From the IMG/VR virus record IMGVR_UViG_3300036818_000127, positions 32,001 through 96,000 of that record: a stretch of 64,000 bases of DNA. One strand, 5' to 3'. Positions within the stretch are counted from its first letter, which is position 1. Every line of letters starts with the position of its first letter. Of this stretch, positions 1 to 60,821 are shown piece by piece. The notes beneath the pieces are model-generated. The model was not told where the DNA came from, searched no databases, and saw only the letters and a list, made by a program, of their open reading frames with translations. Source of the DNA: a virus. Position numbers and translations under genes: made by a program.

Positions 1-17
1 CTTCCATTTCTACCCTT

Positions 18-461
18 GTTGCATAAAAGGTATATGGTCGTATCTCTGTCGCATTTATTGTTGCATCCAAAACCATTATCAGTGTTGCATCCTGTGGTGA
101 CTGTTGCATCCCACTAAGTCCTCTGCATGTTGCAGTCAATATTACCTTGTTGTTATTGTCACATTTGCAAGCTGCATTATCCCTAACAGGAGAGATTTTA
201 TAGTGCTGCATGTCATTTCTGGTTGCATTATAGTTGCATGTACTACTTGCCTCCAGTTGCAGTTTCCCCTGGGTTATACTAGTTGCATTGTGTCACCTGA
301 TGGGATTGTGTTGCATTAATCCCCTCAAGGGACTATCACGTCAAGAAACCCGTTGCAGTCTTGTGTTGCATAGAAAGGAGTAGCAGTCTGTATAGTTGCA
401 GTATCCTCTAATTTCTGACAGTTGCATCAATCCCTAGTTGAGATTAGGATAGCATTGTTAG
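18..461 (-). repeat. tract of about 18 same-strand GTTGCA(T/G)-like motifs, irregularly spaced; decayed extension of the adjacent array
   Basis: Motifs at 18,48,60,84,103,129,171,205,222,233,256,282,310,352,365,380,395,421. Confidence 0.7.
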
Positions 462-890
462 GTTACAATTATGCCCTTTGCTAGTGCTGTTGCAATCATT
501 GGGCTAGATAACTTTCACTAGAGGGATAGAGCAAAGTTACAATCATTCCCCTAGCAGCTAGATCTCGCAACCTGTTTACACCTTCACCGATTGCTGTCAG
601 TCGCTCGCAGTTGCAATTATTCTTCCAGCAGCCAGCCATTGCAATGGAAGTACATTATATTGCAATTATTCCTCCAGCGGCCAGCCATTGCAATTAGAGA
701 AGAATAAAGGAGATGAGATGGGAAACAGGTTGCAATCATCCCCCAGCGACTAGACCCTTGCAACATGAGTTAGATGAGGGTGAGCAGCTGGCCTGGGCTC
801 GTTGCAATCATCCCCCCTGGCAACTATGCCATTGCAATCAGCATATTCTATATGATTTACAATATCATACCCATTGCAATCATTCCCCTA
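462..890 (-). CRISPR. degenerate CRISPR-like array, 35-38 nt repeats (e.g. GTTGCAATCATCCCCCAGCGACTAGACCCTTGCAAC on +)
   Basis: Repeats at 462-496, 536-571, 610-645, 659-694, 729-764, 801-838 and a half repeat from 873; spacers 39,38,13,34,36,34 nt; minus-strand 3' end GATTGCAAC. Confidence 0.75.
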
Positions 891-1092
891 TATATTTTAA
901 AAGAGCCAGCCTCAAGGGAGCCACCGCGAAGCGAGTACCCGCTAGGGTTTTGTGGCGATGTTCCTGCCAGAAAGAGTCAAGTCCCCTATACCCCTAAGAG
1001 TAATCTTCGGATCATACGGCCATTCCCCAGCAGCTCGGCCTGTAACTACTGAAGCGAACTTCGACGAGCCGAGACAATCCGAAGATTGCAAA
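873..1092 (-). ncRNA. putative structured scaffold/tracr-like RNA abutting the array
   Basis: 11-bp stem 1002-1012/1077-1087, CTCGGC/GCCGAG, GAAG-UUCG-CUUC hairpin on minus, GCCAC/GTGGC. Confidence 0.5.
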
Positions 1093-1097
1093 GCAGA

Positions 1098-1316
1098 TTA
1101 TAACACAGGTTTTCTGAGAAGTGTATCCCTTTTCTCCAATGCTTCCTTGAACATTTTCCATGCCCAACTCCGGCCAGATCCACGACTCCAGATGTCACAG
1201 GTATATGGCCTCCGGTCTCGAAGTATGGCCGTTACTCTATCGAAGTCTGCCTTCGTAAATTCGACGCATTCCTCAACATACTCATACTGCTCATTGCTGG
1301 TATTCTGCGTGTCCAT
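1098..1316 (-). CDS. hypothetical protein
   Basis: ORF track 1098..1421; start trimmed to MDTQ. Confidence 0.5.
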   Translation of the reverse strand: MDTQNTSNEQYEYVEECVEFTKADFDRVTAILRDRRPYTCDIWSRGSGRSWAWKMFKEALEKRDTLLRKPVL

Positions 1317-1719
1317 AGCCCTCATCTTTCTGCGGGATAACCTTGGGTAGTGTTTGCCCACCGAGGTAGATCCTTGCCTCTTCTTTGGCCTTATCAAATC
1401 CATTGATGAAATGCACATCACATGCCCCGCATACAGGGATTACATTTCGGTAAATTAGCCCTTGGGCACGATCAAACATGCATATCTTGCTACAAGTGTA
1501 TTTCTGGCATAAGCAGCATAGGCCGTGCCAATCACTCAAAATGCTGAGCCACTCTGGAAGGACAAGAGAGATAGGAGATACACCTTGCCGTCGCGCTTGC
1601 TGAGCCGCTGACTCCACGCGATCAAATTCCCTAAGTCGATCTTTTGAGTAGCACTTCTCGCAAAGTCCATATGCGGTACGGGATGAGAATGTAAGGCCAC
1701 AGATACAGCAAGTGCTCAT
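1291..1719 (-). CDS. Zn-binding, degenerate HNH-like protein
   Basis: Multiple CxxC pairs, NVIPVCGAC. Confidence 0.55.
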   Translation of the reverse strand: MSTCCICGLTFSSRTAYGLCEKCYSKDRLREFDRVESAAQQARRQGVSPISLVLPEWLSILSDWHGLCCLCQKYTCSKICMFDRAQGLIYRNVIPVCGACDVHFINGFDKAKEEARIYLGGQTLPKVIPQKDEGYGHAEYQQ

Positions 1720-1725
1720 AATGCA

Positions 1726-2160
1726 TTATCCAGGAGGTATGGCTTGTAGGAATTGCATAACAGGAAAGTCTACTTGGATAACTAGGTATTCATGCTCATT
1801 AAATATCTGTAGCTGACCTTCTACCTTTTGTCTCTCTATTCTTTCTCTTATCCTTTGTTTCTTGTTAGCCTCAAGTACTTCAGCATTATGTTGTCTTTGT
1901 GCTTTCCCGTGGCAACGCAGGCAAAGTATGATCAGCTCTGCTTCTGGATTAAGAGTATCATAGTTTGGATGATGAGCAGTTAAAACCACCCCTTTCTTTT
2001 TTCGTTTCTTCTTGCGGCTTTTCAGGAGGGGAAGCTGAATAATACTTGGTACCTCCCCTCGTATGCGGAGGCACTGAGAACAGAATGGTTGTAGGTTTCT
2101 CAGGTCGCGTGATCGTTCAGGAAAATTATCTGCATACCATTGCTTGCCGATTTTTATCAT
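1726..2160 (-). CDS. HNH endonuclease-like protein
   Basis: CSQC...LTAHHPNYD...LCLRCH. Confidence 0.65.
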   Translation of the reverse strand: MIKIGKQWYADNFPERSRDLRNLQPFCSQCLRIRGEVPSIIQLPLLKSRKKKRKKKGVVLTAHHPNYDTLNPEAELIILCLRCHGKAQRQHNAEVLEANKKQRIRERIERQKVEGQLQIFNEHEYLVIQVDFPVMQFLQAIPPG

Positions 2161-49764: not shown

Positions 49765-49802
49765 AAAAAGGAGGGATAGCATCTAAACTATCCCTCCTTT
49801 TT
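49765..49802. terminator. bidirectional terminator
   Basis: AAAAGGAGGGATAG...CTATCCCTCCTTTT. Confidence 0.85.
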
Positions 49803-49813
49803 ATGCATCAAAA

Positions 49814-50072
49814 ATTGCAGTACCCTCAAGGCGGGTCGATGGATTGCAACTCGACAGGAATGCGCGGCCAGGTCTCTAGCATGATCAATTGCAGTACCCT
49901 CAAGGCGGGTCGATGGATTGCAACTGGAATATCCTCTCCAGTAGATATCAACATACATCGGATTGCAGTACCCTCAAGGCGGGTCGATGGATTGCAACTT
50001 AGAAAGTCATTCGAGAGACACTTCCCTGATTTTGTATTGCAGTACCCTCAAGGCGGGTCGATGGATTGCAAC
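49814..50072 (-). CRISPR. CRISPR mini-array: 4 identical 37-nt repeats (ATTGCAGTACCCTCAAGGCGGGTCGATGGATTGCAAC on +), 3 spacers of 37 nt, no cas genes
   Basis: Repeats at 49814, 49888, 49962, 50036; leader-like sequence on the right. Confidence 0.97.
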
Positions 50073-50243
50073 TGCCGCAGCATATAAATCTTGAAAGACC
50101 CTACCACTCAACTTTTATCGCATGAGCCCTCTCTTGATCTTCTCAGCGCGGTGATTTCTTTTGTTTTGCTAAGGAAAAGCATACCAGATCTGTCAAGTTT
50201 CGCAAATTGGTTTTTGTTAAAATATGGCGTCGATTTGCGAGGA
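50073..50243 (-). promoter_or_regulatory. putative CRISPR leader
   Basis: AT-rich noncoding DNA with TTCGCAAA / TTTGCGAG motifs. Confidence 0.5.
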
Positions 50244-50721: not shown

Positions 50722-50753
50722 AAAGAGGGATAGTGTAGATGCTATCCCTCTTT
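50722..50753 (-). terminator. terminator, inverted near-copy of 49765-49802
   Basis: GAGGGATAG..CTATCCCTC. Confidence 0.8.
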
Positions 50754-50758
50754 AAATA

Positions 50759-51017
50759 TACCCTCAGATGGATCGATGGAAATGAAAAGTATTAGTCACC
50801 TAATTCAGTTGCAGTATCCTCAGATGGATCGAAAAGTAAATCTGAACTATCGACTAAAGTAGTTGCAGTACCCTACCAACGGGTCGAATTGGTTAAAGTA
50901 GAGAGTATACCCCTATACAGTTGCAGTACCCTCTAACGGGTCTAAGTGCAGAAAGCGAGTATCAAACATATGAATACCGTTGCAGTATCCTAGCTCGGAT
51001 CAACAGAGCTAGGATAC
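50759..51017 (-). CRISPR. array of truncated, divergent CRISPR repeats (Racr/crlRNA-like)
   Basis: GTTGCAGTA(C/T)CC units at 50808, 50862, 50920, 50979 and a partial unit at 50759; period 54-59. Confidence 0.8.
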
Positions 51018-51047
51018 CAGCACTCCCTCTATCTGTCAAGTCGGATT

Positions 51048-51344
51048 CTATAGTTCCTCTTCATAGGCAGTTCGCAATGGCTGCAATGACTCCTCATACT
51101 GAGAACGTAATTCCTGCTCAGCATCCTCTCGTGTCTTGAATGGCCCTTGGTCTTCTCCCTCGGAATAGAGGCCATCCTTAGTCCCTCGCTGGTAGCCGTA
51201 CCATCCATCATCCTGCTGAAATGTCACCATCTCAATCCCGTCTTGCCCACCACCCCAGCTTAGCGGACCAGGGATACCTACAGGGGCTTTCTCACTCAGT
51301 TGAACAATTTCTAAGGTCTGCTTTCTCATCTCTTCATTTGCCAT
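51048..51344 (-). CDS. small acidic hypothetical protein
   Basis: ORF. Confidence 0.55.
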   Translation of the reverse strand: MANEEMRKQTLEIVQLSEKAPVGIPGPLSWGGGQDGIEMVTFQQDDGWYGYQRGTKDGLYSEGEDQGPFKTREDAEQELRSQYEESLQPLRTAYEEEL

Positions 51345-51395
51345 GATTCTTTTCGCTTTCTTTCTAAAACTAAAACTACCTAGCTACTATTCTAC

Positions 51396-51743
51396 TCAGG
51401 AATCCCGCAGGGAATGCGGTTTTTTCTGTGACTTTTTGTTTCCCTCTTCGATGCGTACTCCATCCTCATCGAAGAGGTCCCAGGGATATGTATTTTCAGA
51501 GACACTAAGAGGTGTAGGTTTGAGCATCGATACGTTTCGCTCATGCCATGCTTTTGCCTTTGCGATATCCTCTTCTGTGGCAGGTGCTAAATCCTCGCTC
51601 TCGTATTCATAGGTACCGCCTGTGTGCAGCAAGGTTGCGAAGATCTTCTTATCCTGGATACGCTCTACTCTAGCGCAAACAGTACCACCAATAGCATCAA
51701 CGATTTTAACAATTCGTCCGATTTGATAGGTTATTTCTGACAT
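51396..51743 (-). CDS. hypothetical protein, SH3-like N-terminus
   Basis: AGGAGG RBS. Confidence 0.55.
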   Translation of the reverse strand: MSEITYQIGRIVKIVDAIGGTVCARVERIQDKKIFATLLHTGGTYEYESEDLAPATEEDIAKAKAWHERNVSMLKPTPLSVSENTYPWDLFDEDGVRIEEGNKKSQKKPHSLRDS

Positions 51744-52948: not shown

Positions 52949-52992
52949 TTAGTTTCCTCTTTCTTTACTAGTAGCCTTCTTGATCTATCCTA

Positions 52993-53021
52993 GGTATAGC
53001 ATATCTTCCATAAACTGTCAA
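52993..53021 (-). promoter_or_regulatory. repeated promoter copy (divergent pair)
   Basis: 29-mer, -10 is TATACC. Confidence 0.8.
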
Positions 53022-53129
53022 TACTTTTCACTATGAATATTCCCTCATTTCAAAATATCCCTAAAACTGCCTATAGCATACCAGGCAGGTCCAGTTTTGT
53101 GTAGCACTAAATATTCACCCTCAAACCTA

Positions 53130-53158
53130 TTGACAGTTTATGGAAGATATGCTATACT
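53130..53158 (+). promoter_or_regulatory. repeated promoter copy (divergent pair)
   Basis: Exact 29-mer. Confidence 0.85.
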
Positions 53159-53203
53159 TAGGATAGATAAGAGAGTACTACTAGTAAAGAAAGAGGAAAC
53201 CAA

Positions 53204-60201: not shown

Positions 60202-60411
60202 ATGAAGTGCCACATATGCCTGCGAGAGCAAGGCATCATCCCATCTCAACATGACAATGACCAGCACACCCTATGTGATGAGCATAGAAATGAGGCAGCA
60301 TCAACCTTTTATGTCGGCAAGCTTGCAAGAGAGCAGGCAGGTCGCTTATATGCAGGACATCACGATCTGAATAGGCTACTTCGATTGGTGGGTAGACAGT
60401 CAGGGACCTGA
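60202..60411 (+). CDS. small Zn-binding protein; last codons supplied by the inserted element
   Basis: CHIC...CDEH. Confidence 0.5.
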   Translation: MKCHICLREQGIIPSQHDNDQHTLCDEHRNEAASTFYVGKLAREQAGRLYAGHHDLNRLLRLVGRQSGT

Positions 60412-60821
60412 TCCCTTAAAAGGGATGGGCTTGTAGAGATGGGGGTAGTTTTTGCCCGTCTTCTCTCTAGCTTCACCTGACCAGACCCAGCCAGGGCTGT
60501 TCCTAGAAGGCTCATAGAGAGCGGGAAACAGCTATCGGGCTACGTTAGAGGCGAAATTAGGTACCATAGGATGCGAGGGCCAGTCCGATGCTCTACGGTT
60601 GCAGGTTAAACAGGTTTACGAGGGTTAGTGCCAGTGCTTGCAACGACAAACCGCTTTCTAACTTCGTCGAGGCCCCCATTACCTGGGAAACCAGTGGGGT
60701 TTAGCCGTTCCGTCATAAAACGGCTCCCCGCAAGGGGATTACTCCTAAACTAATCCAGCCTGCGGGCTACTTCTTTCCTCCCAACCACTAAAAGGGAATG
60801 GGTTTCCAGAAAGGATAACTG
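60399..60821 (+). mobile_element. non-autonomous IS200/IS605 element carrying a standalone IscB-type omega-RNA (HEARO-like)
   Basis: GTCAGG...CCTGACCAGAC closing stem, CTACGTT, GGATGC..GCCAGTCC, GGTTAAACAG, GTCGAGG..CATTACC; terminal hairpin shared with 23379-23807. Confidence 0.85.

Follow-up and report, generated by a model that had tools for sequence, protein, structure and literature searches.

A short array of CRISPR-repeat mimics in a soil phage of Chloroflexota, a candidate RNA anti-CRISPR

The closest described counterparts of the locus reported here are two kinds of viral RNA anti-CRISPRs. Racrs are solitary repeat mimics encoded by viruses that trap Cas proteins, as exemplified by RacrIF1 (Camara-Wilpert et al. 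2023, PMC10651486). Viral Cracrs are crRNA-like RNAs copied from the host regulators CreR/CreA, which compete for Cas proteins and direct these to repress cas or creT promoters (bioRxiv 10.1101/2024.10.29.618823). According to the same study, Cracrs are often stacked in arrays of two to three with pseudo-spacers of 21-24 nt, and they have been reported for types I-B, I-C, I-E, I-F and V-A in three phyla, Chloroflexota not being among them (10.1101/2024.10.29.618823). Here, we describe a phage-borne array of five repeat-like units which an earlier note had introduced as a multiplexed Racr/crlRNA candidate. This framing holds insofar as the array fits the published Cracr arrays and related viral arrays match a CreR-like RNA or a cas promoter of hosts, but no match was obtained for its own four spacers.

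The array lies in a virus record of 109,417 bp which carries direct terminal repeats and represents a complete virus, a 109-kb soil phage of Chloroflexota. The window, i.e., the whole stretch of 64,000 nucleotides that was analysed and to which all coordinates refer if not stated otherwise, comprises bases 32001-96000 of this record. A search of cultured-phage DNA with the whole region gave no match, and every relative of the PolA protein showed less than 30% identity. Searching IMG/VR with the full repeat core returned chance singletons only, and the neighbouring proteins used there as single queries had no match. Relatives of the array turned up when soil metagenomes and IMG/VR were scanned for the pattern of two closely spaced handles. 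The neighbours of the array are replication genes and orphans, and no cas genes were present among those tested within ~8 kb, which places the array in a virus-encoded setting outside a CRISPR-cas locus. The sole Rfam report in the window was a HEARO RNA (HNH endonuclease-associated RNA) at 60399-60682 on the plus strand (102.9 bits, E = 4.5e-20).

The five units occupy positions 51003-50752 of the minus strand, with spacings of 59, 58, 54 and 56 nt. The sequence GGRTACTGCAAC recurs at 50990, 50931, 50873 and 50819 (intervals of 59, 58 and 54 nt), and the fifth unit, which starts at 50763 with GGGTATATTT, 56 nt beyond the fourth, has lost its handle. Units 1-4 combine a 4-bp stem (ACCC/GGGT or ATCC/GGAT) with the 8-nt handle ACTGCAAC, and their loops vary, just as the earlier note had described for four full units. 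The period of 54-59 nt was likewise confirmed, compared with 74 nt in a true mini-CRISPR array, which is ~685 bp away rather than the rounded 700 bp given before. Allowing at most one mismatch, GGRTACTGCAAY matched 12 times in the window against an expectation of 0.93, and none of 100 shuffles reached 12; eight of these matches fall within the two arrays. Unlike the units of a canonical CRISPR array, the five units of the short array differ in loop, 5' half and one stem pair.

The array has its own predicted promoter of the sigma-70 type at 51011-51039 on the minus strand (TTGACA, 17 nt, TATCCT, with a TG extension), which was found by a promoter scan. It therefore need not depend on the distant repeated promoter at 53021 from which it had been supposed to be driven. 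In the orthologous locus of the closest relative, a metagenome contig (L151), both hexamers and the TG are kept and the spacer between the hexamers carries substitutions. The region around 53021 contains a 59-nt inverted repeat (window 52983-53168, 88% complementary), which holds a divergent pair of near-consensus promoters (TTGACA-17-TATACT) whose ribosome-binding regions match; these promoters drive the orphan-gene operons on either side.

Unit 1 (psiR1, 50979-51003, minus strand like all following elements of the array) reads TTG ATCC GAGCTA GGAT ACTGCAAC; its orthologue in L151 is identical in stem and handle and has one loop change. It lacks a 5' half because it starts approximately at the predicted transcription start. 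Segment 1 (50945-50978) contains the pseudo-spacer psiS1 (~22 nt, GGTATTCATATG...) and, in diverged form, the 5' half of unit 2, and is homologous in L151 and a second relative, L140; its first 11 nt are kept in both except for position 6, which differs in all three sequences, and single changes at positions 4 and 7. Unit 2 (psiR2, 50920-50944) reads TAG ACCC GTTAGA GGGT ACTGCAAC and is nearly identical to the 3' half of a host repeat, TAGACCCGTTATGAGGGTACTGCAAC of genome G002. It is followed by segment 2 (50888-50919), with psiS2 (~18-21 nt, TGTATAGGGG...) and the likewise diverged 5' half of unit 3, which shows ~88% identity to the corresponding segment of the relatives L147/L137. Unit 3 (psiR3, 50862-50887; TCG ACCC GTTGGTA GGGT ACTGCAAC) precedes segment 3 (50833-50861), made up of psiS3 (~15-17 nt) and of the 5' half of unit 4, again diverged. 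Unit 4 (psiR4, 50808-50832; TCG ATCC ATCTGA GGAT ACTGCAAC) shares its stem type with unit 1 and with most host CreR-like crlRNA units, and is followed by segment 4 (50777-50807), which contains psiS4 (~19 nt, TGAATTAGGTGACTAATAC) and the 5' half of unit 5. Compared with L151, segment 4 is 85% identical over 34 nt up to the stem of unit 5, its first 19 nt differing only at positions 6 and 12. The terminal unit 5 (psiR5, 50752-50776) reads TCG ATCC ATCTGA GGGT ATATTTAA; it can be recognised from end to end, with a U-G wobble in the stem and a degenerate handle, as also found at the ends of host CreR-like genes and related viral arrays.

The 5' part of the repeats had been taken as lost, which turned out not to be the case: it has diverged and is still present. 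As judged by eye, the sequence before unit 2 resembles the host GTTTCAGAAGATAG type, and those before units 3 and 5 resemble the phage GTTGCAATCCATCG type. Because each hairpin is preceded by a repeat 5' half that has diverged, the pseudo-spacers are only ~17-22 nt long, with boundaries set by eye against full-length repeats of hosts and phage, compared with 36 nt in the true array. The whole segments from a handle to the next hairpin measure 32-37 nt. An intrinsic terminator with a 12-bp stem followed by a T-run lies at 50722-50753 directly behind unit 5, as already noted before. The minimum-free-energy fold of the transcript was mildly better than those of shuffled sequences (z = -2.05), the 4-bp hairpins not being its main feature. 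A 12-bp alternative hairpin which had been proposed to mask the first unit does exist at 51017-50985, but such a role appears weak since the hairpin overlaps the -10 region of the array promoter and keeps only ~9-10 pairs in L151.

The true mini-CRISPR array of the phage (49813-50074, minus strand) contains four identical repeats of 38 nt, and its three spacers, each of 36 nt, have no match in the phage itself. Its terminator at 49765-49802 is a paralogue of the one behind the short array, and the two arrays probably share ancestry. Upstream of the true array, a CTTGACAGAT...TGGTATGCT motif at ~50178-50200 resembles the short-array promoter, with the hexamers too close together. Further handle-like sequences occur elsewhere in the phage. 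The last 6-7 bases of the repeat handle, (A/C)TGCAAC, recur every 13-87 nt in two long non-coding stretches, one at window positions ~1-1900 (minus strand) and one outside the window at genome positions 107,400-109,417 and 1-626 (plus strand). The phage genome contains 94 copies of TGCAAC and 68 of GTTGCA versus ~27 expected for each, both being concentrated in these stretches. A second cassette at genome positions 99,960-100,200, ~4 kb past the end of the window, starts with a TTGACA-17-TATGCT promoter, followed by several short hairpins which end in (G)GATTGAAAC-type handles and mimic a different CRISPR repeat family of the ATTGAAAC type.

To place the units among host repeats, one genome per prokaryotic species was scanned for two GGGTACTGCAA motifs at array spacing. 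Large arrays with these motifs were found almost only in Chloroflexota, namely in Ktedonobacteraceae and related MAGs. Their repeats are 37 nt long. The 5' halves vary freely, also among arrays that share a genome, while all repeats keep (G/A)CCC, a loop of 6-7 nt, GGGT and ACTGCAA(C/G/T); the constant part of the family is GACCCG....GAGGGTACTGCAA. The phage units therefore retain exactly that part of the repeat which is constant in the hosts. When compared with the family pattern of (G/A)(C/T)CC, a loop of 5-7 nt (usually G...A), GG(G/A)T and ACTGCAA(N), units 1-4 conform fully and unit 5 in all but the handle. The host arrays adjoin genes for a WYL regulator, Cas3, a Cas8a-like protein, Cas7 (DevR type), Cas5a, Cas6, Cas1, Cas2 and Cas4, and the host system is a type I system with Cas6 in Ktedonobacteria-class Chloroflexota. 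The comparison with host repeats that the earlier note had called for thus shows units that mimic a Cas6-type repeat hairpin with its 8-nt handle, and host loci that encode Cas6, Cas5, Cas7, Cas8 and Cas3.

The same comparison bears on the co-variation of the stems, which differ between units 1 and 4 (ATCC/GGAT), units 2 and 3 (ACCC/GGGT) and unit 5 (ATCC/GGGT). In 42 distinct host and phage units, 99.4% of the stem cells pair, a value reached by none of 500 shuffles, and the second stem pair is C-G in 31 units, U-A in nine, U-G in one and broken in one. Full arrays with the ATCC/GGAT stem likewise exist in hosts (G109, G141, G145 and G154). The co-variation claimed before is thus real as to pairing; it represents a difference between two repeat sub-families of hosts and phages that did not arise inside the array, and may go back to very few evolutionary events. 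Solitary ATCC/GGAT units with promoters of their own were also observed on two host chromosomes which show no arrays of the family, L176 (G089:C3:102272-102297) and L177 (G116:C1:23002-23027), the latter adjoining an ABC-F-like gene (by eye) outside a cas locus.

We then compared the array with its relatives. L151 shares the upstream ORF, the promoter hexamers and the terminator, and its stem types follow in the same order (ATCC, ACCC, ACCC, ATCC, ATCC), with a degenerate last handle. The stems and handles of the four complete units are identical at 64 of 64 positions, compared with 18 of 25 in the loops (72%), 221 of 297 in the upstream ORF (74%) and 60-85% in the inter-unit segments; at an identity of 0.74, the probability of 64/64 is 4e-9. 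The random decay of stems in relatives, named before as an observation that would speak against a function, was looked for and not seen, and the units are therefore under purifying selection. Shorter versions of the same design occur in L140, L147/L137 and L155, where some inter-unit segments are homologous to those of the phage; in L147, three units stand nearly back to back, only 3-4 nt apart. In addition, an unrelated AT-rich virus (IMG/VR contig 3300024520_000102, L109:5880-6010) has two ...GCTACAGA-GGATACTGCAAG units at a distance of 71 nt between a promoter and a terminator, i.e., a one-spacer mini-array with the same handle.

The pseudo-spacers are less uniformly conserved. Their conservation against L151 is marginal (17/19, p ~0.05), and psiS2 and psiS3 could not be aligned. 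In those that could be aligned among the relatives, five of eight positions at every sixth base are variable, compared with five of 40 elsewhere (Fisher p = 0.006), as counted by eye from few sequences in windows chosen after looking. Variability at every sixth base is the pattern expected of guides held by a type I Cascade, and would fit pseudo-spacers acting as guides.

A search of short spacer seeds against host cas promoters had been suggested as a test, and was negative for the source phage: its four spacers matched no cas promoter or CreR sequence in the loci of the host class. From the host class, the promoter windows of 30 WYL operons and 20 complete cas loci were searched, and neither these nor 47 host CRISPR/cas loci gave seed matches above shuffled controls. 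No target of psiS1-4 was found in ~1.4 Mb of cas/CRISPR loci from members of the class other than the true host. Self-targeting of the phage genome by any of the seven spacers stayed within the range of shuffled controls. With the sixth positions left free, psiS4 yielded only one-mismatch matches scattered at unrelated places in 169 genomes of the class, and none of the ATCC-type crlRNA genes in these genomes has a spacer in common with the phage. A 9-nt seed of psiS2 is present between cas3 and cas8 of G001 (by eye), which is expected by chance across 20 loci, and psiS2 is weakly similar to the CreR spacer of that genome (z ~2.7).

The gap between cas3 and cas8 contains host CreR-like genes in G001 (L218), G005 (L219), G114 (L224:7480-7620) and G136 (L231), which run antisense to the operon. 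Each has a promoter followed by two units that flank a short spacer, the first with its handle intact and the second with a degenerate one. A similar pair of units was matched in G073 (C188:7022-7094), and no cas3-cas8 gap or CreR-like gene was seen in G002 and G003. Both units are of the ATCC/GGAT type in G001 and G005, only the second one in G136 and G073, and both are of the GCCC/GGGT type in G114. Just upstream of cas8 in G114, the spacer of the CreR-like gene is partially matched (AGACGATGTT, by eye), which suggests Cascade autorepression in Ktedonobacteria.

Two relatives of the array carry spacers that match such host sequences, each with an AAG 5' flank at the match. An L091-type viral array has a 21-nt spacer that is identical to the CreR-like spacer of G114 at 20 of 22 positions, with no shuffle coming near, and psiS1 of L155 matches the cas promoter core of G136 at 15 of 17 positions. 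The L091-type locus (L091:5150-5480 and L097, IMG/VR 3300012354_000006 and 3300012350_000092; also L138, L156, L160 and L162) consists of a promoter and three full ATCC/GGAT repeats with normal spacers, followed by the CreR-matching spacer; by this layout and match, it is a Cracr appended to an ordinary mini-array. Because these related arrays match host cas regulatory sequences, the lineage of viral arrays to which the short array belongs includes Cracr-type members.

A further link to host cas regulation was found upstream of the array. At 51389-51419 on the minus strand, the phage carries the palindrome CCGCATTCCCTGCGG (51419-51405), followed after 10 nt by the -10-like box TAGAAT (51394-51389). 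The element overlaps the stop codon of a 115-aa ORF and lies ~45 nt upstream of a gene for an acidic 98-aa protein (51048-51344, minus strand); 26 nt of it recur without a mismatch in a single-copy element that precedes the WYL-cas3 operons of G002 and G003. The palindrome with a TAnACT -10 box 10-12 nt further on was present 20-95 nt before the operon ATG in 16 of 30 host WYL-operon windows. The element occurs a single time in the 109-kb phage, and neither L151 nor the other relatives examined have it. The hairpin at 51405-51419 had also been considered as a plus-strand terminator, which was dropped in favour of a minus-strand promoter/operator after the host comparison. The element is read as a captured host cas promoter together with its operator, and the palindrome is probably bound by the WYL-type cas regulator.

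The 98-aa protein is a candidate from an anti-CRISPR locus by position only. It has ten homologues, some of which carry an N-terminal RHH/CopG domain, and members of the family adjoin repeat-mimic arrays in three phage lineages, i.e., the source phage, L151 and the L091/L097 virus (44% identity). The protein gave no PHROG match and only a sub-threshold match to Pfam DUF6316, and the best PDB matches of its AlphaFold model (pLDDT 62.6) were dsRBD-like and not significant (E ~0.2).

Taken together, the array is most likely an RNA anti-CRISPR. As to how it acts, we tentatively favour a Cracr-type array of crRNA-like RNAs aimed at the Cas6-dependent type I system of a Ktedonobacteria-class host, an assignment we would rate at somewhat under an even chance. 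In this mechanism, the dedicated promoter would produce a transcript of ~280 nt ending at the terminator, which host Cas6 would cut after each 4-bp hairpin. The products would be four small RNAs, each with the 8-nt handle at the 5' end, a pseudo-spacer of ~17-22 nt and a 3' hairpin, which would be loaded onto host Cas5/Cas7/Cas8 in competition with immune crRNAs. Since such guides would be too short for full R-loops, we propose that they bind without cleavage, most likely at host cas regulatory DNA as viral Cracrs do, a task for which two of the related viral arrays also appear to be made. The 98-aa gene, being placed behind the copied cas promoter and operator, would be co-induced with the host cas genes, possibly together with the array by read-through. 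A more far-reaching and rather speculative version is that the phage copied the cas-operon promoter including its operator in front of an anti-CRISPR module of the 98-aa protein and the four-guide array, so that counter-defence would be induced by the CRISPR-Cas signal of the host and the two unit types, one of the immune-repeat and one of the CreR kind, would allow the array to enter the immune as well as the autoregulatory arm of Cascade. If true, this would be a concrete example of counter-defence that a phage has placed under the CRISPR regulator of its host.

Alternatively, the array may be a pure decoy of the Racr type that ties up Cas6, Cas7 and Cas5 in useless complexes, with the sequences between the units acting as mere linkers. 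This is a possibility of lesser weight, which would fit the restriction of strict conservation to stems and handles, the loss of psiS2 and psiS3 similarity in L151, the failure to find a target for any of the four segments, the nearly back-to-back units of L147 and the second cassette of ATTGAAAC-type mimics in the same phage; moreover, Racrs are an established mechanism (PMC10651486). A pure decoy is opposed by the regular spacing and the pseudo-spacer lengths of ~17-22 nt, and by the 5' ends of psiS1 and psiS4, which are better kept than the loops and changed at positions 6 and 12. It is also opposed by the related arrays, which are built alike and have spacers matching regulatory sequences of host cas genes.

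Less probable still, and in our view doubtful, is a working guide array which uses host Cascade on targets other than cas, either competing phages and plasmids in superinfection exclusion or other host genes. Virus-borne mini-arrays directed against related viruses are known, and a canonical array of four repeats lies 685 bp away in the same phage. With the diverged 5' halves counted as spacer, the segments of 32-37 nt would also resemble the ordinary spacers of type I-E/I-F systems. However, these halves are recognisably derived from repeats, leaving only ~17-22 nt, and the units are not identical copies, as they would be in arrays built by adaptation. Furthermore, the whole-region search of phages gave no match, and some portions of the segments, instead of being turned over, have been kept between phages that have diverged. 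It is very improbable that the array is a functionless, decaying remnant of a duplicated mini-array, since its likeness, together with the terminator, to a diverged duplicate of the true array and the drift of loops and 5' halves are set against stems and handles kept at 64 of 64 positions in L151 despite ~26% divergence around them, a promoter and terminator kept there as well, and a layout that recurs in L140, L147 and L155.

If the favoured Cracr-type reading is correct, RNA anti-CRISPRs of the Racr/Cracr kind would extend to Chloroflexota phages and to an unstudied Cas6-dependent type I system, and an array of four spacers would exceed the two to three per array given in the Cracr preprint (10.1101/2024.10.29.618823). 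As a by-product, the analysis identified CreR-like regulatory RNAs and a conserved cas-operon operator in Ktedonobacteria-class bacteria.

Compared with known systems, the short array differs from virus-borne mini-CRISPR arrays, to which the true array at 49813-50074 belongs, in that its units are non-identical and its spacers about half the normal length. It shares the layout of the host crlRNAs CreR/CreA, in which a pseudo-repeat, a short pseudo-spacer and a second pseudo-repeat with a degenerate last handle follow each other (Shmakov et al. 2023, PMC10120712), but these are single-spacer genes inside cas loci, whereas the short array has four spacers and resides in a phage. With Racrs, it shares the dependence of a viral repeat mimic on Cas6-type recognition by the host, as well as a promoter and terminator of its own; Racrs are solitary and sequestering, while the short array has five units with regular short spacers and some signs of guide-like constraint. 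The likeness to Cracr arrays extends to the location in a phage genome outside a cas locus, degenerate units that keep handle and hairpin, pseudo-spacers of ~20 nt, a single transcription unit and the possible presence of adjoining candidate protein anti-CRISPRs. The match to host CreR/CreA or a cas promoter that defines Cracrs was not found for the source phage, and is present in the L091 type (20/22) and L155 (15/17). Finally, the published Cracr arrays contain two to three spacers and are directed at type I-C, I-E and I-F systems of Pseudomonadota, Bacillota and Actinomycetota, whereas the short array combines four spacers with five units of two mixed stem sub-types and relates to a Cas6-type I system of Chloroflexota.
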